Below, one piece after another: positions 21,588 through 56,327 of a stretch of DNA of 64,000 nucleotides. Origin of the DNA: Elusimicrobiota bacterium (GTDB lineage: Bacteria; Elusimicrobiota; Elusimicrobia; Elusimicrobiales; UBA9959); NCBI GenBank assembly GCA_016208085.1, contig JACQYT010000030.1:8135-72134 (forward strand), read 5' to 3'. A program made the translations under genes and the position numbers. The notes beneath the pieces were generated by a model. The model ran no database searches. It saw only the letters and a program-made list of their open reading frames with translations, and was not told the DNA's origin. Each line of letters opens with the position of its first letter. The first letter of the stretch is position 1.

Positions 21588-22649
21588 ACCTCCTTAGAAA
21601 AAAAGGATAAGTTAAGGATTTCACAAAAAACAAATGCCGCCCTTTTTGACGGCGCAGCCGACCCGGATAAAGATTTGGGCCCCACTCCATTCGACCGGGC
21701 AGCTGTAATTACCGGCAGAGGCGGCTCGGTCGGCGATTTAAAAAAATCTGACCCGGACATCAAGACATCTCCCATACCGGAGTTCAGCCTGAGCGGCACA
21801 AAACTGTCCGGGAAGACGCCGGGTCAGGCGGCAACAAAGCAGTCTTCCAGCCTGTTGGCGTCCGCCTCATCGGTAAAGTCCCCGGCTGACATCACTGCGT
21901 CCGCGAAAACCGCCGGTTCGGCAACCGCAAAAGCAATGGCTGCTTCCGCCGCTGGAATAGAGCCGGACTATGCCGGATGTTGGTGCTCAGTAGGAGGCAC
22001 GTTTCACGATACAAGCGAAGCATCTAATCTAGCCGCCTGTGAAGCCCTGTGTTGCAAAGAGGAAGGCTTGCTTTGCCCGCCAGACGGCTGCGGGTCATAT
22101 GATCCTAAAAAATTCTGCTGCATAAACGGAAAAGTTGTGGAGAAATTTAAGGCGCCGAAAAAACCGCTGATCGGCGGCATACGCGACTGCAATAACCGGG
22201 TCCAGGCGGTTTCTCCAACAGTTGTAGCGCCCGGAAAAGAAGGTTGTTCGGTTAATAAAGCGATGGAATTTTCCATTAACTTAAAGGAGATGAGGATTTT
22301 CCCGTTGAATATAATAAACAAGAAAACCATAATCATTGATTTTAATAACCCTTTTAATGATCCTAAACTCGCTTTTCGGGGTTCCTGCAATACACACGAT
22401 TGGTGCTATGGGACATGCCGGAAGAACGCAAATGATTTCGCAGATAGAAAAAAATGCGATGACAAGTTGCTTGAGAATTTAAAGGTGGTTTGTGACAATG
22501 CAAAAAAAGATAAGCCAACATGGGATGCATGTTACGAGCTGGCAGGTGATATATATGGCGGTTTAAGACAGAATATTTTTCCTTTTGCAGGACCAGGGTC
22601 TTACAGAGATGCTCAAATCCAGCATTGTAAATGTGATTTATGCCCATAA
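21588..22649 (+). pseudogene. 5'-truncated member of Cys-rich secreted family with phospholipase-A2-like tip (copy C)
   Basis: Open frame from 21588 aligns with copies A/B (FDG..., TG.GG.V.DLK, EFSLSGTKLSG); C-terminal CNTHDWCYGTC...KKCDDKL. Confidence 0.7.
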
Positions 22650-23584
22650 TTCCACTTTTTAGGATGCCTGCCCGGCAAATTCAGATGTCTGCGTTTATTC
22701 GTGGGTCGTTTATTTTTTGTTTTCTCGGCCTTGTTGTTGTTCCATGTTTAATGTGTGCCGAGGATTGGTACAGCCACGACCACATGGCGATGCGGTTAAA
22801 AGAGCTGGAGGACAAAAATCCGGAAGTCCGTTACTCCGCCGCGATATATCTTGGATTGGTCGGTCAGGAATCAAAGGATGATGAACGAAAAGAAGTGATA
22901 TCGGCCTTGAAACGGCATCTTTATGATACTGATAAGTTTGTGCGCTACAGCGCAGCCGGAGCCCTGGCTGGCATAGATACCAGTGTCAAGGAAGTTCTGC
23001 CTATTCTTATCGAGAAACTTAAAGACAAAGATACGAAACCAGATACTGCGGCGTTGGCTCTTCGCCATTTTGGTCCGGAAGCCAAGGAAGCAGTGCCTAT
23101 AATCATTGACCTGATGAAAAAAGAGGGGATAGATTATTCCTGGGGTACACCTATTTCTCATTATGGGGACGTGCTGCGGGACATCGGCACGCCGGAAGCT
23201 CTTGCCGCCATTGAACCGCTGAAACGAAGAGAACTGATAGCGAACGCATTTTATGCGCCGTTCGACCTTTTGCTGCAACCGGTGTTTGCGCTATTGACCA
23301 GTCTGTGTTTTGCGGGACTTTTTTGGCGGAGCCGCGCCCAATACAAAAAAGGGAAAAAGATAAAGTACATGCCGCTTCTTATTCCGGCCCTGAGTTGGGG
23401 ATGCTGGGGGCTGTATGAGGCCTATGAGCATTATGAGCATATGGACAGTTTTGGAGGTACAGTTTTTATCGTCTGCTGGTTTTTATTTTTCGCAACTTTG
23501 GCGGGCGTAATTCCATGGCTGGCAAGCCGGCTGCGGGGGCGGGCGCAGGAAAAATGCAAACCCGCCGGCTCCGCCCCTTCTTAA
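22640..23584 (+). CDS. HEAT-repeat membrane protein (candidate immunity/partner gene)
   Basis: VRYSAA HEAT repeats, N-terminal signal, three C-terminal TM helices; overlaps upstream stop; true start may be a downstream Met. Confidence 0.65.
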   Translation: MPIIPLFRMPARQIQMSAFIRGSFIFCFLGLVVVPCLMCAEDWYSHDHMAMRLKELEDKNPEVRYSAAIYLGLVGQESKDDERKEVISALKRHLYDTDKFVRYSAAGALAGIDTSVKEVLPILIEKLKDKDTKPDTAALALRHFGPEAKEAVPIIIDLMKKEGIDYSWGTPISHYGDVLRDIGTPEALAAIEPLKRRELIANAFYAPFDLLLQPVFALLTSLCFAGLFWRSRAQYKKGKKIKYMPLLIPALSWGCWGLYEAYEHYEHMDSFGGTVFIVCWFLFFATLAGVIPWLASRLRGRAQEKCKPAGSAPS

Positions 23585-23953
23585 ACCTCAACAATTGACC
23601 CCTCCCCGGCTGACGACTCCCCTATTACTATCCAGTTTTGCCCGGGCAGTGTTTTCGCCGGACAGCGGAAGCATTGCCAGAAACCGCGCCGGGTATCCAG
23701 CATTCTTTCCACCTGTCAAGTCATTTAAAAATGTTACCCAAGGAATGACGTCGTCATCGGCTGTTTCTTTTTTGCTTCTTTTTTCTTTTTGTGAATTCAT
23801 GTTGACAAAGTGCATAACTCATCTCGTCTGAAACAACTTATCGTGATACCATTGCTTGCGAAATCGTTTGATTTCAATGTCCCTGAAAGGCTGAAATAAT
23901 GGTTCAAAAGCATTTCCATCAAGAACAAAAGGTTTTGCTAATGGCAAACGTTT

Positions 23954-24076
23954 GATTCATTCGTAAAAAGTTCATTTTGTTTAGAAATTGTAGCGGGCGA
24001 CGTGAGTCGCCTATTGAGCGGACTTACGTCCGCCGCTACAGTTTTGGACCAAAAAACGACTTTTTACGGGAGAATC
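23954..24076. mobile_element. MITE family A copy 2
   Basis: IRs, AACGTT flanking duplication, REP-doublet core. Confidence 0.85.
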
Positions 24077-43860: not shown

Positions 43861-45573
43861 ATGTTTAAAAGAGTATTCATAAGCGCGGCAGTCATCCTCT
43901 CCCTTTTCCCCCGTTGCGCCGTATCCCTTCAGCTTGAAGCCATGAACGCCTCCGACATAAGCGGCGCCCTGTATCTCGCGGTCCCGGCGGTCCAAGCGCC
44001 GGCTTTCCCGGCGGCGGACGCTAAAGCTCCCCGGTACGGCAACTACTACCTGGACGAGAACAGCTATGACCCGCTGCTCACGCGCAGCCTGCCGTCTTTG
44101 CAGAAAATAAACGTCATAGGCGGCGACATAAACATCCCCGGCGCAGACAGCGGCTTGAATTTCGCCCGCAAATACCGCCAGGCGGCTTACCAGGTATACG
44201 ACCTCCAGAGCGACGTGGCGCTCACGGTCTACACCAAGAGTATTCCCAAAACCCTGTTCCGGGTGCTTTTCGGCGTCGTGGAGGATAACGGCGCCACCAG
44301 CGGCGGCACCTACGGCGACATAAACCCGGTGGCGCCGGATACGCAGGACCCGGTCATCGCGCTGCCTACCGAGGCGGAGATAATGGCGCAGGAGATACCG
44401 CAGGATGAAAAGGACCGCCTGCTGCTCAGCTTGAAGAACTCAAAGCTTATGCTGGAGGGGCGCGTAAACCCCTTCCGGGTCAAAGAAATGGTAAAGATGC
44501 TTACCCAGATAATGAAAGAGGAAATGGATGCCAACGGCATTACGCCGCAGTTCGGCGTGCCGCATGCCTGGAGCCCGGAATTCACGGCTTACTGCAAGGC
44601 GACGGGCGAAATGATCCCGCTGACTTTCACAAAGCTGCTGACGGCCCTCGCCTCGGGCGTCACCTCGCGCCACTTCAAGACGGGCAAAGAGAACGACCTT
44701 GTAAATTACATCCTCTCCCGTCCCGACGGCAGCGTCACCCTGGACGAGGCTTTTCACCGGAGCTACGTCTTGAACAGCGGCGAAGTCTATCTGACCATCC
44801 TCACCATAGAGAACATCCTTTCCGATTACTGGAGACATCCGCAGCGCGACCAGTTGGCCGTCACGCGCAAACTCGCGAACATCTCCAATTTTTATCAGGG
44901 CAAGGGCGACAAGTACGGCGCGTGGTACCATTTCCACGGCATCATGCTTTACGGCTATGTCAGGGGCGGCCTGCGGGCCTATATCGTGGGCAATATAGAG
45001 AGCGCGGGCTCGCACGTCCTTTCCCCCGGCGTGAACGAACAGCAGGAAGATTACGTCAATTCCACCGGCGGCAGAATAGGCGCGAAGGCCGCCAGGGCAG
45101 TAAAGAACCGGGATTACCTGACCTTCACGGCGGACCGCAACTACCGCGACCCTGAAGTCTATCTGAACCTGCGCGAGGATTTCCGCGACAGGATAGAAAT
45201 AATACAAAGCCGCAAGTTCCAGGGCGACCTCTCCGATTCCAGGCTCTGGCTGAAACCCCTGGGCGGCGATTACGCCGGCTGCAGGGTGGAGATAATCTAC
45301 TCCGACTCAGGCGGCGGGCTTAATTCCGAATACAAGCGCGTCATGGAGGCCGTGGATTTCCGCAGCGGCAAATCCAAGCCGTTTTATCTCAGCAGCGCCG
45401 GCCCCGTAAAAAAAGCCAGAGCTTTCATCGCCTGTCCCGGCCTGGCCGAGCAGGCCCTGGACTCCGACGACCCCTGGGCGGATATGAGTAACTCCGCCAG
45501 GCGCGGCGCGCCGGCCCCTCCGGAAACAGCCCCAACGCATTACCGTCCAGAACAGCTGGTTCAGGCCAAATGA
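43861..45573 (+). CDS. Secreted hypothetical protein
   Basis: 570-aa ORF, signal peptide, RBS AGGAG, host-like codon usage. Confidence 0.7.
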   Translation: MFKRVFISAAVILSLFPRCAVSLQLEAMNASDISGALYLAVPAVQAPAFPAADAKAPRYGNYYLDENSYDPLLTRSLPSLQKINVIGGDINIPGADSGLNFARKYRQAAYQVYDLQSDVALTVYTKSIPKTLFRVLFGVVEDNGATSGGTYGDINPVAPDTQDPVIALPTEAEIMAQEIPQDEKDRLLLSLKNSKLMLEGRVNPFRVKEMVKMLTQIMKEEMDANGITPQFGVPHAWSPEFTAYCKATGEMIPLTFTKLLTALASGVTSRHFKTGKENDLVNYILSRPDGSVTLDEAFHRSYVLNSGEVYLTILTIENILSDYWRHPQRDQLAVTRKLANISNFYQGKGDKYGAWYHFHGIMLYGYVRGGLRAYIVGNIESAGSHVLSPGVNEQQEDYVNSTGGRIGAKAARAVKNRDYLTFTADRNYRDPEVYLNLREDFRDRIEIIQSRKFQGDLSDSRLWLKPLGGDYAGCRVEIIYSDSGGGLNSEYKRVMEAVDFRSGKSKPFYLSSAGPVKKARAFIACPGLAEQALDSDDPWADMSNSARRGAPAPPETAPTHYRPEQLVQAK

Positions 45574-46330
45574 TTAAAAGACGTATTCTGAACACCGGGG
45601 ATGATGGCCTTTTGCGACACCGGCCCACGCAGACCTTGACATTCTGGTTAACCGGTTAAGAGTTTTTTCTGTGGGGAATATGAGGAAGAAAACCGTTTCA
45701 ATAATATTTGCGGTTATCACCGCGTTCAGCGTTATTCTGCCGCACGCTCCCAAAATAATTCCGGAAGGAAACTCCCTCATAGCCGCCGCGGCCGTTGCGG
45801 CAACTTTATCCATCCCGTCAAAATCAATGGCGGCCATTATGCCAGCGCGCATAGTGCAACTCGCCGTCGCCATGCCGCAAAGGTGTGAGGCCGGCGTCAT
45901 GGAGCAGCTTTGTTCCTCGGTCACCAGTTTCCTGAATGACGAGGCCGCCAGGGCCGATACCGCGTTAAAAAACTGCACTAAAAACTGCGGCTGGAAAAAA
46001 CGGAAAGACGACCTGATAGACGCCGCCCGGAAAAAGGCCAAAGAGTCCTGCGCCAGGGGCGAGGCCCCGGATATCAACGAGGTGAGTAAAGGGCTTGACG
46101 GGAACACCAAGGCAAAACTTAAAAATTTATATGACAGTAACAGCCGGATGTTCGATGGCTCGGCCAAGCTCACCGCCAAGGACTTTGATGTAAAATCCAA
46201 CCAATCCCCCGCGTTAACCGGTAAAAGCGGCCAGGTCACCGACCTTAAAACCGCCGAGTCGGCCACCCCCAAGTTAAACATCGCATCCGAGTTCGGCCTG
46301 AGCGGCACAAAGCTATCCGGGGAACTACCG
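45557..46330 (+). repeat. Long inverted repeat arm (leader + conserved N-terminus), partner of ~52805-53601
   Basis: Near-identical from TGGTTCAGGCCAAATG through ~46180, patchy beyond; right boundary approximate. Confidence 0.85.
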
Positions 46331-47074
46331 GCCCCGGCAAAACAAAACGCCGTGTTGCCAGCTTCTGCGTCGCCGGCAAAGACTTCGGCCGATACGGCTT
46401 CCGTATTGCCGGCGAAATCCACGTTTGACACTGCCGCATCCGCAAATAATGCCCTTTCGCTGCAAAAAGCCGTGGCGGCTTCGGATCCGATAATTCCGAT
46501 GGTGAGGGAATGCAAGTGTTACTACGGCGGCTTATTTCTGGAGGTTGGGGAGGCGGAGACAAAATGCTGCGTGAACGGAACGCCGGTCGCAAAGTGCGGC
46601 AGCGCATGTTGGAATCCCGTGGTGGAATGCTGTCAAGACGGCAAGGTCTATCCGGGAAAAACTTTATATCTTGGAAAATGCATGACCATATGCGAGGCCA
46701 TTCTAGGGCGCATCGGGAGAATAAATACATATATTGGCAAGTGGGAGGCAGATCCCAATTATACTATAGAAGGCGATCCGAATACTGCGGTAGTAACAAC
46801 ATATGCTGAAACATTTTGCCGGACACTTAAAGGGCCAGAAATAAAGTTCTATGAAGCGTTTTATAGCTTGGACCCTGAATTACAAAAAGCAATAACAGTA
46901 CATGAGAATGTGCATGCGGGGCAATGTAAGCCATATACGTTTCTCAGGATAACTTATTACGGGAAGGACAAAGAACTAAGCGAAAAGGGTGGCATCGGTC
47001 CTTTTGAAATACCAGCACATGAGGCAGAAAAGAGGATTCTGGAAACCTCCGCAGATAAATTACACTGTCAATAA
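45680..47074 (+). CDS. Cys-rich secreted protein with HExxH tip (copy A; putative polymorphic effector)
   Basis: Signal peptide; conserved N domain; A/S/T linker; CC..G...CG..C.NP..ECC.DGK repeats; HENVH...E.PA...E. Confidence 0.75.
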   Translation: MRKKTVSIIFAVITAFSVILPHAPKIIPEGNSLIAAAAVAATLSIPSKSMAAIMPARIVQLAVAMPQRCEAGVMEQLCSSVTSFLNDEAARADTALKNCTKNCGWKKRKDDLIDAARKKAKESCARGEAPDINEVSKGLDGNTKAKLKNLYDSNSRMFDGSAKLTAKDFDVKSNQSPALTGKSGQVTDLKTAESATPKLNIASEFGLSGTKLSGELPAPAKQNAVLPASASPAKTSADTASVLPAKSTFDTAASANNALSLQKAVAASDPIIPMVRECKCYYGGLFLEVGEAETKCCVNGTPVAKCGSACWNPVVECCQDGKVYPGKTLYLGKCMTICEAILGRIGRINTYIGKWEADPNYTIEGDPNTAVVTTYAETFCRTLKGPEIKFYEAFYSLDPELQKAITVHENVHAGQCKPYTFLRITYYGKDKELSEKGGIGPFEIPAHEAEKRILETSADKLHCQ

Positions 47075-47085
47075 AGGCAAGCAAT

Positions 47086-47535
47086 ATGAAGATTTGCACA
47101 TATGTAGTTGTTTTCGCAATGATGGCCGTAATGGTGTTGATTGTTCCGTATATCATAACGGTATTCAGTCGCTTTAATAAAGACAAGGTTTCGGCTTGGC
47201 GCCGATTTTTCATGATTGTTTCTGTTTGCTACCTTCCGTTTCCTATAGTTCTGGCAGTGGTCCATGCTCATAACCCGTTGATTTTAAATTTTTCCGACCA
47301 TTTACTTAGAACATTATTTCTGGTCTACTATCTAGCCTATCTAATGTCAGGCAGTTTTATTAAGACCTGGCTCAGTCTCCAATTGCGTTTGCGGACATTT
47401 GTAGTTCTAAGCACTATATTTTATCTGATAGCCACACTCATTCTTCCGGTGATATTTTATCTTTGTGGGGATCCGCTTTGTGATATTCTTTCAGTAAGAA
47501 TAGGTGTGCCGACTGCCGATATAATAGAAAAATAA
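47086..47535 (+). CDS. 4-TM membrane protein (candidate immunity A)
   Basis: AT-rich; paralog of 51432-51863 (PYIIT...FNK....WR.F..I.S.CYLP; GD.LC.I). Confidence 0.7.
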   Translation: MKICTYVVVFAMMAVMVLIVPYIITVFSRFNKDKVSAWRRFFMIVSVCYLPFPIVLAVVHAHNPLILNFSDHLLRTLFLVYYLAYLMSGSFIKTWLSLQLRLRTFVVLSTIFYLIATLILPVIFYLCGDPLCDILSVRIGVPTADIIEK

Positions 47536-47736
47536 GTTTGTCATGTCGGTATTATCGATTATTCGGAGATAAAAGACGCCGTCAAATCCCTGACGAATTT
47601 AACGCTTACGAACGCAGTCAAAATGGCGCTGTCTTCGGCCGGCAGACGCGAAATTACAATAGCGGAGGGATCCGTCGATCTGGCCCGGGCAAAAGCCGAC
47701 GACTCCTGGAATACCGCCGAATCCCGTGGAGTTGCG

Positions 47737-48489
47737 ATGAAACGCATAAAAAAAATCATTCCCGTGCTGCTTAGCGCTCCTGTCTGCGCATTTATCCTCC
47801 TTCTTTTAATCGGGGTTTTTGCCACACCAGACCGGGAGAATATAGAGGACCGGGTCCTGGAAAATGTGAAAATTGATTGTGACATTTTGGATTTAAGCGA
47901 CATCGTATAGTATTATTACAAAATCCCCATTATGGTGGAAGTCGGCGGCGGGCGCCATGACGGTTCGGAAAAGATTTCTTATTCAACCCCAAAAACAACG
48001 GCGCGGGAACTATTGGACGCAGTCGTTCCTAAAAACTCTTTCGTGTGGCGAGCGGAAGGGGATGTTATTCATATTATTTCAAAATCACTGGCCACGCGGT
48101 CCGATTATCAATTAAATGCCACCATTGAACGATTTTCTGAGAGAGGGGATTATAACAGCCTGATTCTGAAAGCGCTGGAACAAGTGCAACAGCGTAATTT
48201 CCCGGAACCAGTTCTTTTTGAGCCGTTCTCATATAAGGATTGGAATATTAAAAAACAGTTATGCCCGTTTAAAGTCAAGGCGCGCAATACAACGCTCAGG
48301 CAGCTGTTGGACCAGATCGCTTTAAAAGGGGGGATACTATATTCGGTTAGGCGGCTCCAAAACAACGGACTGCTCCGAAACACTAACTGCGCATACTATT
48401 TCTGGCTGCCTTTGACAGAAGATGGAATAGGCGGCTTAAGTCCGATCAATGATCCGTCCGAACCGGAACCGCCCTGCCCGAAGATTTAA
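47737..48489 (+). pseudogene. Exported protein with STN-like repeats, interrupted by in-frame TAG at 47908-47910
   Basis: ORFs 47623-47910 and 47932-48489 share one frame; T.RELLDA and TLRQLLDQIA motifs; signal peptide from ATG 47737. Confidence 0.6.
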
Positions 48490-48587
48490 ACATTAACGCG
48501 CCCTCACCGGTCTCGCCAAAGAAAAATCCGCTGGTTGAAATAAGCATTTAGCCACCACCACGCCCAAAAATCAAAAAATATCGCTGG

Positions 48588-49784
48588 TTGGAAGGCATTC
48601 TCAAACGCTTCATGTTCTTTGATCTCAAGCGGGACGAAAAGGGATTGCTGCGCAGCTACATGAAAGCTATGACCGGGATTTCCGAGTCGCAGCTGACAAG
48701 GCTGATAAAGAAGCAATTGCTTGCCGGGAAGATAACTGCGGCTTGGGGCCAGCGCAACAAGTTCCCGGTGGTTTACACAAGGGAGGATATAGAGCTTTTG
48801 GCGGAAACGGATAATCTTCATGAGCGGCTGGCAGGTCCGGCGACCAAGAACATCTTGGAGCGCAAGCTTAAATTCGGCGATATCCGTTATAAACGTCTTA
48901 GCAGCATATCCGTTTCGCACATATACAACCTACGGGAAAGCCCCGCATACAGATTTAAGGCGCTGACCGTATCAAAGACAAAATCGGTGCAGGTCGCCAT
49001 ATGGAAAAGAGGCAAGCCAAATCCGAGAGGGAAGCCTGGGCATTTACGGGTGGACACGGTGCACCAGGGCGATCTTGACGGCGTAAAGGGCGTTTACCAT
49101 ATCAACATGGTTGACGAGGTCACACAGTGGCAGATTGTCGCGTGCGTGGAGGCGATAAGCGAGGCTTGGCTGGAAGACGTGCTGGAGGCGGCCATATTGA
49201 TGTTCCCGTTTCTTATCCGGGGGTTCCATTTGGATAACGGCGGGGAATTTATAAACAAGCAGGTAGCCGGGATGTTGGGCGGGCTTTTGATAAAACAGAG
49301 CAAATCCAGGTCGGGGCGGACCAACGACAACGCGCTGGTGGAGGGCAAGAACGGGAGCGTCATCCGCAAACATATGGGGCACTGGCACATAGAGCGGCGG
49401 CACGCTGACGGGATACACCGGTTTTACATGGAATATTTCAACATCTACCTGAACTACCACAGGCCCTGCGGATTCGCGACGATCACCGTTGATGAGAAAG
49501 GCAAGCGGCACAGAACGTGTGAAATCTACCAGACGCCATATCAGGCGTTTAGGTCGCTGAAGAAACCGGAGCAATATCTTCGGGAAGACGTGACCCTTGA
49601 GGAACTGGAAAAGACGGCCAAGGCGCACAGCGCCAACGGGTTCGCAAAACTGATGCAGAACGCAAAGGCTAAATTATTCAGAGAAGTGCTGCCGAAAGGG
49701 GCACAAACATTCAGAAATGGAGGCTTGGTTAAAAAGTTTGCGACGGAGCACCGACGAGAGATCTCATGCTCATCCTTGGATTAG
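48588..49784 (+). mobile_element. rve/DDE transposase (IS481/ISNCY-like), probably 5'-truncated
   Basis: PGHLRVDTVHQGD; HLDNGGEFIN; NDNALVEGKN; YLNYHRPC; YQTPY. Confidence 0.85.
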
Positions 49785-49986
49785 AAAATGCTGACAACGC
49801 CTGCGCCGGACTGCGGCGGGAGACGGTTGCACGGAACGCGGCAGGTCTGTGGGCGTCGAACAACCAAATACGGCTGTTTGAAACATTTATCCGACTGAAA
49901 CGGGCTAACAGCCTGTTTCAGGGGGTGTTTTTCGACTCAGAATAAGAGGCCGAATCGGGCCCTATTATAGGGCTGCTCGGGGAGCG

Positions 49987-51177
49987 TTTTGGGTACTACT
50001 CTGCAACAAAGAGGGTTGTCCGGTAGCCGTTGAAGTTGTTGACGGTGATATCGGCGATGCTAAGTCATTAGACAGGCAGCTTGATAAGTTGCGCAATCGT
50101 TTCAGGCTCAAGCGCATCATTATGGTGGGCGACAGGGGAAGCATAACGGATGCGCGTATTAACGAGGAACTAAAGCCGGCGCAAGGAATAGACTGGATAG
50201 CGGCTTTGCGGGCTCCCTCAATTAAGGAACTGGCGGAACAGGGGCTGATCCGGCCATCGCTTTTTGACGAGCGGGACCTGGCAGAAATAAAATCGCCGGA
50301 TTTTCCAGGGGAGCGGCTTATAGTATGCCGCAATCCTTTTCTGGCGGAAGAGCGGACGCGCAAGAGGCAGGATTTATTGCAAGCGACAGAAAAAACGCTG
50401 AAAAAAATAGTCGCCGCCACCAGACGTGCCAGAAAGAGATTAAAAGGCAAAGCGGAAATCGGCGTCAGCGTGGGCAAGGTTATCAATCATTACAAGATGG
50501 CGAAACATTTTAAGCTGACCATTACCGAGGATTCTTTTTCTTATGAACGGAAGAAACAGGAAATTGAGGCGGAAGCCGCGCTGGACGGCATATACGTGAT
50601 ACGCACCTCCGTGGGAGCAGAGACCCTTAACAGCGAAGATGTGGTGGGCCGCTACAAGGATCTGGCTTTTGTGGAACGCGCTTTTCGCTGTCTTAAGACT
50701 GTGGATTTGAATGTGCGTCCGATTTATCATTGGCTGGAAAAGCGCGTGGTCGCGCACATTTTTCTATGCATGCTGGCCTATTATATTGAATGGCACATGC
50801 GCAAAGCGCTGGCACCGCTGCTCTTTGACGACAAAGACAAGGAATACGCCAGGAAACTGCGGACATCTGTTGTAGCTCCTGCCGTGCGTTCGCCAATGGC
50901 GGAAGAAAAAGCCCGTACACGGCGAACCCCGCAGGGCTATCCGGTGCACAGTTTTCAAACGTTGTTACAGGATTTGGCGACAATAGCCAAGAATCGGGCT
51001 AATCCTTGTGGTGCCGGCAAGGCTGAATTCTTTATGTTGACAAAACCAACGCCTTTGCAAAAGCGGGCTTTTGAGTTGCTCAATATCCCGCTATCGTTGT
51101 AGCCAGAACAGCTACAGCCGGAATTGACTGGCTGTCGACGATAAAAGCTCTTTTTATGTGCTGGAACTTTGGTTTAG
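49987..51177 (+). mobile_element. IS1634-family transposase, 5'-truncated, with right end
   Basis: GCPVAVEV; VGDRG; LDGIYVIRT; YKDL..VERAFR.LK; RPIYH; AHIFLCMLAY; end GGAACTTTGGTTTAG. Confidence 0.85.
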
Positions 51178-51178
51178 G

Positions 51179-51377
51179 GTAACGCAGCTACATCCGGGTT
51201 CACTTTCGTTACGACCCGCTCCTTCGCATCGGACATCTTATAATGCCCTTTGTCGAATCGCTTAGAAAGAGGGAATTGCTCCCCTCCCTCCGATTCCCTG
51301 CTATCAGGCTGTCAAGCTTTACCTGAGCCGGCTCTTTTCATCCGGCTGGATTAACGGCAGTTTACTCCTTGGCACAC
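51179..51377 (-). ncRNA. Group II intron 5' fragment (domain I), truncated at the IS1634 end
   Basis: Starts GUGUG; AAUCCAGCCGGAUGAAAAGAGCCGGCUCAGGUAA; GGGUCGUAACGAAAGUGAACC; no RT ORF or domain V seen. Confidence 0.6.
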
Positions 51378-51431
51378 AACCACGTCCCTTTTTCCCCTTT
51401 TTCCCGAGAATGTTTTGTAAAAGTTTCCCGG

Positions 51432-51863
51432 CTAGAGATAATTGACGGCGCCTCCAAAAAATATTCCACATAATAGGTCGCCGAATAACTCGGATAAATA
51501 GAGAAGTAAAACTGTGGTTATTAAGTAACCCACAGTTGAAAACAGGATGAATTTAAACCAGCCTAATTGAAGATTTGTGTGTTTCTTAACAAAAATTGTA
51601 AGCGCGATATAAGCAAAATAGCAGCCCTGCCACCACGGGAGTAAAATTTCCTCACCAATATGGCCATGCGAAGCAATACCAACAATATAAAAAACAGCAA
51701 TAACCGGTAAATAGCAAGCAGAAATAATAATCAGAAATTTACGCCAGATTAAAAGCCTCTCCTTGTTAAAATGATTAGGCAAAGTAATGATGTAGGGGAG
51801 AGCCATTATAACAATGCCCATTGATAAAGAAAATAAAATAATTACCCATAAATTTGGTTTCAT
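51432..51863 (-). CDS. 4-TM membrane protein (candidate immunity B)
   Basis: AT-rich; paralog of 47086-47535; 16 nt after copy B stop. Confidence 0.7.
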   Translation of the reverse strand: MKPNLWVIILFSLSMGIVIMALPYIITLPNHFNKERLLIWRKFLIIISACYLPVIAVFYIVGIASHGHIGEEILLPWWQGCYFAYIALTIFVKKHTNLQLGWFKFILFSTVGYLITTVLLLYLSELFGDLLCGIFFGGAVNYL

Positions 51864-51879
51864 AATTTGCCTGTATAGG

Positions 51880-53450
51880 TTATTTGCATTTTTCCGTGAG
51901 TTTCCCTTCTAAAAAGTCCCGCTCCTTGGTATATGCAGGGACCTCAAGTACATATTCCTTTTCCTTTTGTAGTTCCATGTAGCGCTTCTGGCCCATATTT
52001 ATACATTGTTGTCTATGCTCATTTTCATGAATTGTTATCCCGGCTTGGATATCAGGGTCAAGAGTATAGAATCCAGGGTAATTGTACGTCCATGGTCGGT
52101 TAATACCCCACAAACAAGATGTCATGGCAATTGTGGTGGCAGTTGGGTCTGTTTGTGTAAGGGGCTGATGTTGGTTATAGCCAGCGAGGTATTTATTCAC
52201 CGTTTCAAGACGCTTTCTAACATGATAACATGTACAACTTTCCGGTATCTTCTTTCCGTCCACGCAACATTCTGTCTTGGGGTCATAACAAGCTGTGTCG
52301 CATTTTACCCCATCCACTATCTTTTCGTCCGCGCAGCATTTTGTCTTGGGATTGAACCATGTCCCGCAGCATTTCTGCTTCCCCCAAAGTTTGTGCCACC
52401 AATCAAAAATACCAGACTCCGGCCCGCAGCCTGACGTGCAGCCGGTAACAAAAGTGGTGCAAAGACTGTTGTAATCCTGGCAACATTTACATTGTGCCGC
52501 CGCCCCGGCGGTAATAGCGGTACACAGTGTATAGCACTCTCCTTGCTTAGCTGCGTCCTTTGGATACTTTTTACCTCTTCCGCGCAGCATATTCCAAGGC
52601 ATCTTTTAGAAAGATTGGGTTCAACCTGCTTGCATTCAGCACAGGTTTGAGGCTCGACTGCCGAAACCGTGGCTTTATCGGATGCAGCAGCGGCGGTCGG
52701 GGATTTTGATGATGACCCGGCGGTTGTGTCGGCCGAAGCTTTGGTTTGCACAGCAGATGCCAGCAAGCCGGCGGATTGTTTTGCAGCGGCCGGATTCGAG
52801 GTTTCCCCGGACAGTTTTGTACCGCTCAGGCTGAATTCAGTGGTGGGATTTAATTTTGGGGTGTTCGGCTCGTAGAATTTCAAATCGGTGACTTGACCGC
52901 CCTTACCGGTGAGCGTTGCGGCGCTGTTTGAGGGGACCGGTGTTAAATCTTTCGCGGCCAGTTTGGCGGTGCCGTCGAACATCCGGCTATTCCGATTGTA
53001 TAAATCCTTAAGCCGGTCTTTTGTGTTCCTATCCAGCCCCTTGCTTAATTCATTGACGTCCGGAGCCTCGCCCTTGGCGCAGGACTCTTTGGCTTTTTTC
53101 TTGGCGGCGGCTATCAGGTCGTCTTTCCGTTTTTTCCAGCCGCAGTTTTTAGTGCAGTTTTTTAACGCGGTATCGGCCCTGGCGGCCTCGTCATCCAGGA
53201 AACTGGTGACCGAGGAACAAAGCTGCTCCATGACGCCGGCCTCGCAGCTTTGCGGCATGGCGACGGCGAGTTGCACTATGCGCGCGGGCATAATGGCCGC
53301 CATTGATTTTGACGGGATGGATAAAGTTGCCGCAACGGCCGCGGCGGCTATGAGGGAGTTTCCTTCCGGAATTATTTTGGGAGCGTGCGGCAGGATAACG
53401 CTGATCGCGGTGAGCCCCGCAAATATCATTGAAACGGTTTTCTTCCTCAT
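51880..53450 (-). pseudogene. Cys-rich secreted protein with HExxH tip (copy B), frameshifted at A5 run 52568-52572
   Basis: ORF 53450 start matches copy A N-terminus; Cys pattern continues in ORF 51880-52602 ending HENEH...EVPAY.KE. Confidence 0.75.
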
Positions 53451-53868: not shown

Positions 53869-54558
53869 ATGAATGAAAAGATACTTGTTATTGAAGACGA
53901 AAAAGATATCGCCGGAATGATAGATTATAACCTTAAGAAGGAAGGTTATAGGACTGTTTTGACCCATGACGGTCTTTCCGGGGCCGCTGCCGCGCTCAGG
54001 GAACGCCCGGACATTATAATCCTGGATCTGCTGCTGCCCGGAATGGATGGGCTTGAAGTCTGCCGCCGCATCAAGATGGACGTCAGAACCGTTTCCATAC
54101 CTATAATAATGCTTACCGCAAAGGGCGAAGAGTCGGACAAGGTGGCTGGCCTTGAGCTGGGCGCCGACGATTACGTAACCAAGCCTTTCAGCGTGAAGGA
54201 ACTGCTGGCCCGTGTGCGGGCCGTGCTGCGCCGCCCGGCGGCCGCGGCCGAAACGCCGGAAGTTTACCGCGCCGGGGACATTAAGCTGGACTGCTCCCGG
54301 GTGCTGGCGCTGGCCAAAGGAAAACCGCTGGAGCTGACCGCACGCGAATTTGAGCTCTTAAAGGCGCTGATGGCGGCCGGCGGGAAAATGCTGTCGCGCG
54401 AAGCCCTGCTGGATAAAGTCTGGGGGATGGACGCGGCGCTTGAGGTGGAGACCCGCACCGTGGATGTGCATATAGGCACGCTGCGCAAAAAGCTGAAGTC
54501 CGACGGGAAGCGCATCATAACGGTTAAAAATTACGGCTACCGTTTTGAAAACCAATAA
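53869..54558 (+). CDS. phoB: Phosphate regulon response regulator (PhoB/PhoP)
   Basis: OmpR-family motifs; GLELGADDYVTKPFS; RTVDVHI; upstream of pst operon. Confidence 0.88.
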   Translation: MNEKILVIEDEKDIAGMIDYNLKKEGYRTVLTHDGLSGAAAALRERPDIIILDLLLPGMDGLEVCRRIKMDVRTVSIPIIMLTAKGEESDKVAGLELGADDYVTKPFSVKELLARVRAVLRRPAAAAETPEVYRAGDIKLDCSRVLALAKGKPLELTAREFELLKALMAAGGKMLSREALLDKVWGMDAALEVETRTVDVHIGTLRKKLKSDGKRIITVKNYGYRFENQ

Positions 54559-56327
54559 TGCCCGGTATGTTTAAAACTTTCAGATTCCGGCTTTTTCTTT
54601 CATATCTCGCCCTGTCGGCGGCCGTGCTCGGTGCGGCTTTCTTTTTGGTATACCAGTGCATCGAGAGAGCCGAACTTTCGACTTTGAAATCCAAACTTTT
54701 GGATGAAGCCGCGCTGGTTTCCGCGCAACTCCGTTCTTCCGACCTCGCTTCCCCCGGCCTTCACGCGCTGGCTCATTCCCTCGGCTTAAAAGTGCGCTCA
54801 AGACTGACAATAATAGGCGCGGACGGCCGTGTGCTGGCGGATTCGGAATTGGACGTAGCCGGCGTAAGAGCCATGGAAAACCACTCAAGCCGGCCTGAAG
54901 TTGCGGGGGCCATGAAAGGCGGGCCCTCTTACGACCTACGCCGCTCGGCTACGCTCGGCAAGGCTATGCTTTACGCGGCCTATCCGGTAAGTTCAGGCGC
55001 GCGGGTGGTGGCGGTGGCGCGCCTGACTATCCCCGCGGCGCAGTTGGAAGCGGCAATGACCATGCTTAAGAAAGCGCTGTCGGCGGCGCTGGCGCTGGCA
55101 TTCTTGCTTTCTTTCCTGCTTGGCCTTGCGGTTTCAGGCGGCTTTTCCAGGTCTTTCAATAAAATAGTTTACGGTTCCAAGAAATTCGCCGCCGGGAATT
55201 TCTCGTACAGAATACAGAAAGATTTTCACGGCGAGATGGGCAAGCTGGCCGAGACGCTGAATTCCATGTCGGCGGCCATAGAGGAGAATCTGCGGCGCGT
55301 GGAGTTCCAGTCGCAGCAGCTTGCCGCCGCTTTCGCCAATATGGCAGAAGGCGTTCTTATAACCGGGCCGGACGCCCGGGTGACCGCGCTCAACCCGGCG
55401 ATAGAGAGGATGTTCGGCGTGAAAGCTGAAACTTCCGTTTCAAAACCGCTGCTGGAAGTTATTCTCAACGCCCGTTTAAGTGGGATCTGCGGGCGCGCCG
55501 TTTCCGGCGGGAAGCCGGTTTGGGAAGAAACGGAACTCTTCGCTCCGGTCAGGGGCGTTTTCAGCGTGAACGCTTCGCCCCTGTTTGAGGGCGGGGCCGT
55601 GTCCGGCTGTCTTATGGTCGTGCATGACGTCACCGAAGTGCGGCGTCTGGAGGCCGGGCGCAGGGACTTCGTGGCCAACGTTTCGCACGAACTAAAAACG
55701 CCGCTTACGGCTATCCGGGGCTGCGCGGAAACGCTGCTGGAGGGAGCCATAGACGACAGAGAGCACGCAATGAAATTTCTCGGCGTCATTTGCGAACACT
55801 CTAAGCGGCTGGATAATATAGTCGGCGACCTGTTGAAACTTTCCGCGCTGGAATCTTACGCGGCGGAGGTAAAGAAGGAAGCTGTAGGATTGAAAGACCT
55901 GGCGGATTCTCTTGTAACTAGCCTGGCTTCCGTCTTCAGGTCTAAAAAAGCCGTTGTCTCCAATATAATACCGGCGGACCTGCGCGTCAATGCCGACCCG
56001 GAGAAGCTGGGGCAGGTTTTTATAAACCTGCTGGACAACGCCGTTAAATTTTCCCCGGAAAGTCCGAAAGTGGAAATCTCGGCGCAGGAACTGCCCGGAA
56101 GCGTCAAAGTGCTGGTGAGGGACAACGGCACAGGAATACCGCAAAGCCGGCTTGCGCGGGTGTTTGAGCGTTTCTACCGCGTGGACCAGGCCCGCTCCCG
56201 CGAAACGGGAGGAACCGGCCTCGGTCTTTCTATAGTAAAGCATGTGGTGGAACTGCACGGCGGTTCCGTCGGAGTGGAAAGCGCCGAAGGCCGCGGCTCC
56301 ACATTCTGGTTCACAATACCTAAATAA
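54558..56327 (+). CDS. phoR: Phosphate regulon sensor kinase
   Basis: ENH..RPEV; HAMP; PAS; FVANVSHELKTPL; RFYRVD.ARSR..GGTGLGL. Confidence 0.9.
   Translation: MPGMFKTFRFRLFLSYLALSAAVLGAAFFLVYQCIERAELSTLKSKLLDEAALVSAQLRSSDLASPGLHALAHSLGLKVRSRLTIIGADGRVLADSELDVAGVRAMENHSSRPEVAGAMKGGPSYDLRRSATLGKAMLYAAYPVSSGARVVAVARLTIPAAQLEAAMTMLKKALSAALALAFLLSFLLGLAVSGGFSRSFNKIVYGSKKFAAGNFSYRIQKDFHGEMGKLAETLNSMSAAIEENLRRVEFQSQQLAAAFANMAEGVLITGPDARVTALNPAIERMFGVKAETSVSKPLLEVILNARLSGICGRAVSGGKPVWEETELFAPVRGVFSVNASPLFEGGAVSGCLMVVHDVTEVRRLEAGRRDFVANVSHELKTPLTAIRGCAETLLEGAIDDREHAMKFLGVICEHSKRLDNIVGDLLKLSALESYAAEVKKEAVGLKDLADSLVTSLASVFRSKKAVVSNIIPADLRVNADPEKLGQVFINLLDNAVKFSPESPKVEISAQELPGSVKVLVRDNGTGIPQSRLARVFERFYRVDQARSRETGGTGLGLSIVKHVVELHGGSVGVESAEGRGSTFWFTIPK

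Follow-up and report, generated by a model that had tools for sequence, protein, structure and literature searches.

A window of 64,000 nucleotides (nt) from a metagenome-assembled genome (MAG) of an Elusimicrobiota bacterium (GenBank assembly GCA_016208085.1, contig JACQYT010000030.1, positions 8,135 to 72,134; the MAG comprises 3.14 Mb in 136 contigs and is 90% complete) carries two inverted genes, copies A and B, each followed by a gene for a protein with four transmembrane segments (4-TM), and a third, partial gene, copy C. These genes probably belong to a greatly expanded family of polymorphic toxins and immunity proteins. An earlier note on this DNA had described a constant front, a variable tip and a co-varying downstream membrane gene, and this arrangement was upheld. 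The proteins begin with a Sec-type leader and a three-helix bundle, followed by a motif segment that is conserved yet modelled as disordered, a linker rich in alanine, serine and threonine (A/S/T), a Cys-rich stalk and, at the end, the variable tip.

A tblastn search of the genome with residues 4-218 of copy A (E <= 1e-5) found 47 loci, and a profile made from an alignment of 25 paralogs (alignment A3) gave 57 matches. Since the architecture of copies A and B recurs this often, it cannot be attributed to chance. Together with the first open reading frame (ORF) downstream of each, the family ORFs occupy 73.9 kb, which is 2.35% of the assembly.

Variable tips and their downstream membrane genes

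A single invariant C-terminus throughout the family would have spoken against a polymorphic toxin system, as the earlier note had pointed out; the tips proved to be diverse. The last ~170 residues of the proteins of this genome formed 11 clusters, one of which was the out-of-frame tail of copy B, and reclustering with the true C-terminal frame of copy B gave 10 tip types on the N-domain. A shared N-terminus joined to unrelated C-terminal domains, by which polymorphic toxins are recognized, is therefore found here with ten or more tip types. The commonest of them, T0 (8 loci), consists of an immunoglobulin (Ig)-like domain and a beta-rich domain. T1 (4 loci and copy B) is the HExxHxxQC type of copies A and B, T2 (4 loci and copy C) is a phospholipase A2 (PLA2), T3 (3 loci) is another HExxH type, and T4 (2 loci, with one related single locus as well) is a further one. 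The remaining tips include several singletons, with one locus each.

Recognized toxin domains were found in part of the family. Pfam detected PLA2 in 5 of 37 and 2 of 28 members in the two sets scanned (best E 7e-08), Colicin_M in the foreign member P0045 (40.8 bits, cut-off 27) and Ntox44 in P0065 of this genome (41.6 bits, cut-off 24); tips A and B and the T0 tip have no such domain. For T0, the leads are Ig-like (ESM Atlas, 0.82; Big_2, E 0.005). Judging from the domains that can be recognized, most such tips would be aimed at the cell envelope (phospholipase A2, colicin M-like and HExxH domains).

Nearly every full-length family gene is followed by an ORF with predicted membrane helices, with spacing ranging from a 10-nt overlap to a 34-nt gap. 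The proposal in the earlier note depended on the downstream genes following the tips, and in 27 loci of this genome they do. The same downstream type was present in 31 of 45 same-tip pairs and in 1 of 306 different-tip pairs, a value that none of 10,000 label permutations reached, and tip identity was correlated with downstream-gene identity (Spearman 0.78, n = 28). Within the genome, all five T1 tips are paired with a 4-TM protein and all five PLA2 tips with a protein that has HEAT repeats and transmembrane (TM) segments. Loci of foreign MAGs repeat the pairings, with a T1 tip and a 4-TM gene at L026 and L027, and a T0 tip and a gene for a multi-TM protein of ~170 aa at L030. The position and co-variation expected of immunity genes are thus seen in own-genome and foreign loci alike. 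The candidate immunity proteins, which would protect the producing cell, are all membrane proteins, and this points to the envelope as the target of the toxins.

On a tree of the N-domains, tip type takes 11 changes (minimum 4, shuffled mean 10.7). The tips have therefore been reshuffled relative to the N-domains while remaining linked to their own membrane genes.

In the alignment of 4-TM proteins, the conserved residues lie in the helices and in two basic loops, and the other loop and the tail are variable. By the positive-inside rule, the variable parts would face the periplasm. Complex prediction for tip A with its 4-TM protein gave a score of 0.43, with the best control at 0.00; the runs agree in at least 92% of contacts, and the pLDDT (predicted local distance difference test) of the partner is at least 57. 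The mark used in this prediction let through 58 of the 80 solved complexes and 2 of the 110 mismatched pairs; of the 80, only 7 passed it at scores of 0.60 or lower, the range that also contains both passing mismatches. The prediction lends weak support to binding of tip A by its own 4-TM protein.

The T1 tip

The tips of copies A and B have diverged, as the earlier note had seen (34% identity), and an HExxH-type pattern is invariant among the seven aligned T1 tips. The residues H82, E83, H86, Q89, C90, E117, P119, A120 and E124 are the same in 7/7, and the invariant H, E, H and two downstream E hold across identities down to 29%. From this pattern, the T1 tip is likely a metallopeptidase. The more specific claim, that tips A and B are zincins, is borne out by the HExxH motif and a further conserved acidic residue; the Pfam score stayed below the cut-off and fold searches found no match, and by their motif the two tips are putative zincins.

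Somewhat less probably, tips A and B are not metallopeptidases, and their HExxH, Cys and Glu residues bind a structural metal, or the tip acts on a membrane-embedded target without proteolysis. Pfam Tox-MPTase4 (PF15640) matched tip B with 13 bits against a cut-off of 25 (E 0.098), and tip A had no match. Two observations speak for the alternative. The model of the T1 tip is confident (pLDDT 87.9, predicted template modeling score 0.83); Foldseek nevertheless returned nothing for it at E <= 0.001, and comparison with 48,161 Protein Data Bank (PDB) representatives (VIA-align) found no zincin, the best Z of 5.5 falling on the unrelated SpoIIIAB and ZnT transporters. The partner, moreover, is a 4-TM protein with short loops only, and an immunity protein almost entirely composed of membrane helices would suit a target embedded in the membrane. 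Against this alternative stand the invariance of H, E, H and the two downstream E in all seven tips, as well as weak leads to small HExxH peptidases, which include the Tox-MPTase4 match and two ESM Atlas clusters, one with 49% Peptidase_M76 members (0.90) and one with 24% M78 members (0.89). It should be noted that the absence of a fold match does not prove a different fold.

A word-based homolog search with the tip alone retrieved three proteins, all of them family members. The lone match of a PDB profile search, a designed TPR protein, was rejected as spurious. As compact new domains, the T1 and T0 tips and the 4-TM protein lend themselves to structural and biochemical work. A different kind of tip occurs at L032, a locus of genome G355, where a foreign family member, a 480-aa ORF, ends in a Gly-rich, strongly hydrophobic segment instead of an enzyme-like domain; this tip may insert into membranes.

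The constant N-terminal module

The constant module consists of a Cys-containing three-helix bundle of ~95 residues and a motif segment of ~55 residues ending in EFSLSGTKLSGE. The mean column identity of the N-domain in alignment A3 is 60%. AlphaFold2, run on this alignment, predicted three long helices (model residues 8-38, 45-66 and 82-100) with a block pLDDT of 76-91 over residues 11-100, and a disordered motif segment (model residues 101-159) with a block pLDDT of 35-46. The part of the family that is most widely kept is this predicted-disordered segment, with its motifs FDG, GGQVxDLKxSEPxxPK and EFSLSGTKLSGE. Subfamily 2 of the N-domain is 34-38% identical and lacks 12 residues of the bundle, and subfamily 3 retains almost nothing besides the motif segment.

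Nine paralog contigs lose DNA homology to copy A at positions 46320-46324, at the end of the EFSLSGTKLSG motif, which places the boundary between the constant and the variable part at this motif. Cys-rich modules of the stalk are common, in mosaic fashion, to genes with different tips. In 5 of the 37 members, the stalk gave sub-threshold matches to Pfam IGFL.

The earlier note would also have been undermined by a match of the N-terminus to a known non-toxin family, and none was found. The N-domain had no Pfam match in any of the 37 + 28 members and no NCBIfam match in the 37, its profile found 0 chains at E <= 1 among PDB sequences, and a Foldseek search with the N-domain model returned only generic helical bundles, at E 0.9 or worse. 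Among the Pfam matches of the 65 members there was likewise no RHS, CdiA, LXG or MafB domain, in agreement with the earlier note, and none to RHS repeats or to TPS or FHA domains.

Copies A and B

Copy A (45680-47074, + strand) is an unbroken ORF of 464 aa at the place where it had been reported. Its type 1 leader (residues 1-59; 45680-45856), a signal peptide by eye, begins with MRKK, contains two hydrophobic segments and has no tandem repeat. It is followed by the constant N-domain (residues 67-159; 45878-46156), a three-helix bundle with conserved Cys according to the AlphaFold2 model and alignment A3. The disordered motif segment (46166-46333) contains FDG, GGQVxDLKxSEPxxPK and EFxLSGTKLSGE, with near-invariant A3 columns and low pLDDT. 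Next come a low-complexity linker rich in A, S, T and K (46334-46498), the Cys-rich stalk of CxxxC...CC.DGK units (46499-46657), whose modules form a mosaic among paralogs, and the 138-aa tip of type T1 (46658-47074; HENVH...QC...ExPAxxxE), a putative small metallopeptidase-like toxin domain. The candidate immunity gene for tip A encodes a 4-TM membrane protein of 149 aa (47086-47535, + strand).

Copy B (53450-51880, - strand) has the same layout, as had been described. It is not a single ORF: a 1-nt frameshift divides it between an N-terminal frame (52317-53450), which contains the type 1 leader, the N-domain, the linker and out-of-frame sequence past an A5 run, and a C-terminal frame (51880-52602), which contains the stalk and a T1 tip with HENEH. 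The A5 run at 52568-52572 (- strand) is the site of the frame change, as seen from the sequence and a blastn alignment; at this site blastn showed A6 in intact paralogs (contigs C52 and C22), whereas the C112 paralog has A5 like copy B. Copy B is inactivated by this 1-nt frameshift, which is separate from the leader repeats described below. Its candidate immunity gene, for a 4-TM membrane protein of 143 aa, lies at 51432-51863 (- strand).

The N-termini of copies A and B are strongly similar, with 149 of 170 residues identical (87.6%; 180/218, or 82.6%, over the longer stretch), which is less than the near-identity that had been claimed. DNA homology between the two stops at nt 716 of gene A, within the A/S/T linker. 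Other features in the earlier description were confirmed: the motif EF.LSGTKLSG, the linker and the CxxxC..CC.DGK repeats are all present, GC content falls from ~0.55 to ~0.40 across the tip and the downstream gene, and the 4-TM paralogs, 36% identical to each other, start 11 nt (A) and 16 nt (B) past the stop codons.

In the type 1 leader (45680-45856 in copy A, 53274-53450 in copy B), the sequence PHAPKIIPEGN lies between the two hydrophobic segments, and the second segment aligns with the sole hydrophobic core of the other leader types. The two-segment form may represent an extended signal region.

Copy C and orphan cassettes

Copy C (21588-22649, + strand) shares the linker motif with copies A and B and has a different tip and a different downstream gene, as had been stated. 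It is not a full copy. Since only the last part of a subfamily 2 N-domain is kept, ahead of the motif segment, linker, stalk and phospholipase A2-like tip, copy C is a leaderless, 5'-truncated cassette, which also lacks the helical bundle and starts 8 nt past the stop codon of a gene of the metallo-beta-lactamase fold. Its stop-to-stop frame retains KLRISQKTNAALFDGAAD, and its DNA is 86% identical to that of the C113 paralog. The tip matches PF09056 below the cut-off (E 1e-4, 23.3 bits, cut-off 29.4), and the motif CNTHDWCY is present by eye. The end of copy C is overlapped by the candidate immunity gene for the PLA2 tip (22640-23584, + strand), which encodes a HEAT-repeat protein (HEAT_2, E 2.7e-11) with one N-terminal and three C-terminal hydrophobic segments. 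The charge distribution suggests that the HEAT domain would face the periplasm.

Behind copy A lies a remnant of the downstream gene type that is paired with Ig-like (T0) tips (47699-48553, + strand). This orphan immunity-type gene is split between the ORFs 47623-47910 and 47932-48489, is 85.5% identical in DNA to the gene that follows the T0 toxin of contig C80, gives weaker matches on C103, C90, C117 and C10, and has no Pfam match. The family gene on contig C45 has behind it a second T0 tip with its own membrane gene, which is an orphan cassette as well. Standalone C-terminal cassettes with their own immunity genes, a further mark of polymorphic toxin systems, are thus represented by copy C with its HEAT/TM gene and by the C45 cassette.

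Distribution of the family

A search of 1.84 billion proteins with the A3 profile (E <= 0.001) found only 59 cluster representatives, and 71 family proteins were retrieved, 32 of them from this genome. Of 401 genomes of the phylum, 3 contain the N-domain, with 57 matches in this one, 15 in a second genome of its genus and 2 in a genome from a different genus of the same family. Named family records come from Elusimicrobia or Elusimicrobiaceae MAGs and from one 2.2-kb contig binned as Chloroflexota, and the sequencing runs that contain the DNA are groundwater metagenomes of one study. The family appears to be confined to one small clade of groundwater Elusimicrobia.

On contig C59 (113-954), an N-domain runs straight into the final ~50 nt of tip A, which are 100% identical, and the final ~250 nt of the 4-TM gene, which are 98% identical. 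This could be a deletion form of the copy A locus, either a strain variant or an assembly chimera.

Leader repeats and possible phase variation

The family has at least three types of leader. Type 1, that of copies A and B, has no simple-sequence repeat, and as regards leader repeats these two copies would be constitutive. About 28 family genes, all of them outside the window, have simple-sequence repeats within the leader-coding region. The type 2 leader (MKAILKISV...LLFSSL...YSVPxxCEA) contains a (CTCTT)n tract, and all 11 tracts of three or more perfect CTCTT units in the genome are in family leaders. Six of them are in frame (17-20 nt) and five, about one unit longer (22-24 nt), are out of frame, so that the start codon and the first 10-13 codons do not share the frame of the remainder. 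CTCTT leader tracts were located on contigs C8, C11, C39, C56, C72, C96, C113, C114, C134 and C135 and at L026.

In N-subfamilies 2 and 3, a poly-C tract (C7-C12) lies between a normal-looking leader and the mature part. There are 17 such tracts (contigs C1, C13, C17, C22, C25, C26, C45, C47, C51, C77, C79, C94, C109, C110, C120, C133 and C135; also L030/L040). Several genes of these subfamilies could be taken for leaderless orphans; this reading was rejected, since their leaders exist and are out of frame at the poly-C tract. Among the 30 C/G runs of at least 9 nt in the genome, 14 occupy this one family site, the boundary between leader and mature part, and 16 are non-family. Under strict criteria, 10 of the poly-C genes have an out-of-frame leader and 2 an in-frame one; in the out-of-frame genes the leader ORF ends after 31-48 codons and the mature frame is open for 133-607 codons. 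Out-of-frame leaders occur in other MAGs too, with C10 at L030/L040 and an imperfect pentamer tract at L026. As in Opa, coding repeats lie in the leader and the number of units sets the frame.

On this evidence, we incline to the view that many of the family genes are contingency loci, in which the leader tracts would switch toxin export by slipped-strand mispairing. The tract lengths and frame states are those of the assembly consensus. Contigs of four groundwater runs break at the tracts (at about 822-865 and 9194-10097 of L050) and provided no insertion/deletion rows, and patterns flanking one poly-C and one CTCTT tract had no match among Joint Genome Institute (JGI) metagenome contigs.

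Out-of-frame leaders may, with a lower probability, not be switches at all. They would then be dead or dying copies, homopolymer or repeat errors of the assembly, or a means of fixed low expression by +1 ribosomal or transcriptional slippage. Plain frameshifts do happen in the family, as in copy B and the C112 paralog, and several family loci are truncated. Further observations against switching are that most out-of-frame poly-C copies have one offset and need the same +1 correction, which could reflect systematic assembly error or recoding; that a locus of G355 with a like leader has the identical C10 tract, likewise out of frame; and that G355 and G212 have no (CTCTT)3 tract. Decay, however, would not keep mature frames open for up to 607 codons behind out-of-frame leaders. 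Differences between the pentamer copies come in whole 5-nt units, unlike a typical sequencing error, and the tracts are restricted to one site of one family (11/11 pentamer tracts and 14/30 long C/G runs).

If the contingency reading of the leader repeats is correct, and they are real switches, the family would join contingency loci with inter-bacterial warfare, usually separate fields, and would provide a testable bet-hedging model for toxin deployment in a free-living, non-pathogenic bacterium. A more far-reaching proposal, which we put forward tentatively and rate below the switching itself, is that no polymorphic toxin arsenal operated through contingency loci may have been known before this one. 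The subset of the ~50 toxins exported by a given cell would be random, heritable and yet reversible, through CTCTT tracts convergent with those of Neisseria opa or through poly-C, with immunity to all toxins always on. The motif segment ending in EFSLSGTKLSGE, the sole segment that every subfamily retains, would be both a new outer-membrane export or processing signal and a recombination handle. Among the papers listed for phase variation together with polymorphic toxins or interbacterial immunity, including the available passages of PMC9900821 and PMC4287609, none was found to describe repeat-switched polymorphic toxins.

Proposed mode of action

Taken together, the features of the family suggest the following scheme. 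The Sec-type leader would carry the protein across the inner membrane. The bundle and the motif segment would then perform a family-specific step, such as export across or anchoring in the outer membrane, or processing, for which no partner was found. The low-complexity linker and the Cys-rich stalk of variable length would present the exchangeable C-terminal domain, and the tips, one of which is Ntox44, would attack mostly envelope targets. The gene within ~35 nt of the stop codon, or overlapping it, would encode a tip-specific inner-membrane protein that neutralizes the tip in the periplasm or membrane of the producer and so protects the producer and its kin; co-variation is the observed part of this step. 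Tip and membrane gene would travel as one cassette between N-domains, recombining at the motif segment, and such exchange would leave orphans behind, among them copy C and the downstream-gene remnant of 47699-48553. In repeat-bearing genes, slipped-strand changes would toggle export and leave the separately translated immunity gene unaffected.

Several facts tell against a toxin/immunity system of this kind. The commonest tip, T0, at 8 loci, has no toxin-family match. No route across the outer membrane was identified: no accessory gene is conserved upstream, with any one upstream ORF shared by at most three loci, and a search of the 90%-complete genome found no type VI secretion system (T6SS) sheath gene. 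Nor were DsbB or VKOR found in it, despite the very Cys-rich family, which the earlier note had suggested may be disulfide-rich. Three secretin genes are present in the genome. The co-variation counts are not independent events, because the paralogs are kin. Many loci lie at contig ends or are truncated, the MAG being in 136 contigs, and some copies may be strain variants of the metagenome, because contig C59 resembles a deletion form of copy A.

It seems improbable that the family is instead a general scaffold for secretion and surface display, whose adhesin-like and hydrolytic cargo would help the cell to attach, to feed or to attack non-kin, including eukaryotes or prey, with the downstream membrane proteins merely shielding the producer during export or anchoring the cargo: the commonest tip is indeed Ig-like or invasin-like, leader switching driven by repeats is a classic feature of surface adhesins, Opa among them (available text of PMC3960869), and the Amoebophilus APD1/2 effectors, of the same constant-front, variable-end layout, are host-directed (available text of PMC3482391); yet Colicin M and Ntox44 are bacteriocin or polymorphic-toxin domains, each tip type has its own tightly linked membrane gene, orphan cassettes of tip and membrane gene are typical of inter-bacterial toxin systems, and eukaryote-directed domains were detected in none of the 65 members scanned. 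A polymorphic toxin/immunity family is thus preferred. It would add to the phylum a polymorphic toxin family with an undescribed constant domain, and an arsenal whose expansion is extreme (57 N-domain matches and 2.35% of a 3.1-Mb genome). Literature searches on polymorphic toxins, and on toxins with immunity proteins, in Elusimicrobia/Elusimicrobiota found no such system described for the phylum, the only paper returned being the 2012 survey PMC3482391.

Relation to known systems

Colicins are not known to use Sec export, and they bring domains of their own for receptor binding and translocation; colicin M is represented by Pfam PF14859. Bacteriocins that target the envelope, including those of the colicin M type, have membrane-anchored immunity proteins. 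The likeness of the present family to colicin M lies in the colicin M domain of the foreign member P0045, and in a proposed mode of action in which the envelope is attacked and protection is given on the periplasmic side of the inner membrane. No colicin receptor or translocation domains were detected in the family, and the tips within the window, unlike colicin M, are not of this domain type.

The earlier note suggested an undescribed class of toxins. This part did not hold, since Sec-dependent polymorphic toxins with a lineage-specific domain after the signal peptide are already described in PMC3482391 (Zhang et al. 2012); the family is therefore not a new class. In the available part of that source, MAFB-N, Microscilla-N and APD1/2 are such lineage-specific domains, behind the signal peptide of polymorphic toxins dependent on Sec and the type II secretion system (T2SS), and Tox-PLA2, Tox-MPTase4 and HEAT immunity proteins are also listed. 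What appears new here is a lineage-specific, undescribed N-domain in a polymorphic toxin/immunity system of the MafB/MafI kind.

MafB/MafI of Neisseria is the nearest worked example. As far as the available passages of PMC4287609, PMC7738311 and PMC3482391 go, it shares with the present family a type I signal peptide ahead of a conserved N-domain restricted to the genus, a short junction motif and a variable C-terminal toxin. Also shared are an immunity gene directly downstream, several classes of N-domain, silent C-terminal cassettes that bring immunity genes of their own, and a similar share of the genome, ~2% in Neisseria and 2.35% here. The N-domain itself is not that of MafB: DUF1020/MAFB-N (PF06255) was found in 0 of the 65 members scanned, and no MafA-like gene is conserved upstream. 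Compared with what is described of MafB in these passages, the family genes are single and scattered instead of being grouped in islands, are about ten times more numerous, have a Cys-rich stalk, and are paired with candidate immunity proteins that are integral membrane proteins. Leader repeats, present here, are not described for MafB in these passages.

Microscilla-N, APD1 and APD2 resemble the N-domain in being restricted to one lineage, located behind a signal peptide and present in many paralogs with polymorphic C-termini, and the available text of PMC3482391 relates a proposal that these domains anchor or cluster proteins at the cell surface. As described there, they differ in that the domain here is a helix bundle with a disordered motif and comes from another phylum, in that Microscilla has only seven toxins compared to the far larger expansion here, and in that APD proteins have a lipobox, of which no canonical form was seen by eye in the family leaders.

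With regard to the leader repeats, the closest parallel is Neisseria Opa, for which the available text of PMC3960869 describes phase variation by CTCTT coding repeats in the region of the leader peptide. Both systems have the same pentamer at the same position, within the hydrophobic core of the signal peptide, and both are multi-copy families whose copies differ by whole units, some in frame and some out of frame. Opa is an outer-membrane adhesin, whereas the cargo here is toxin-like and has a linked immunity gene; the host here belongs to an unrelated, free-living and uncultured phylum; a second subfamily uses poly-C; and switching is here predicted from assembled repeat lengths.

Neighbouring genes in the window

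Two ORFs that resemble parts of mobile elements lie between the inverted copies A and B, at 48588-49784 and 50089-51102. The first matches the integrase core (rve) below the cut-off (E 9.5e-07), and the second, which has no Pfam match, is a transposase fragment by eye only. Immediately upstream of copy A is an ORF of 570 residues (43861-45573) with a leader-like N-terminus and no Pfam match, which is not conserved upstream of other family genes. Divergent from copy B (53869-56327) are a response regulator of the OmpR/PhoB type, identified by Pfam, and an ORF that by eye resembles a histidine kinase. Finally, a ~49-nt sequence at 23952-24000 recurs with 98-100% identity on ~15 other contigs and represents a short dispersed repeat.

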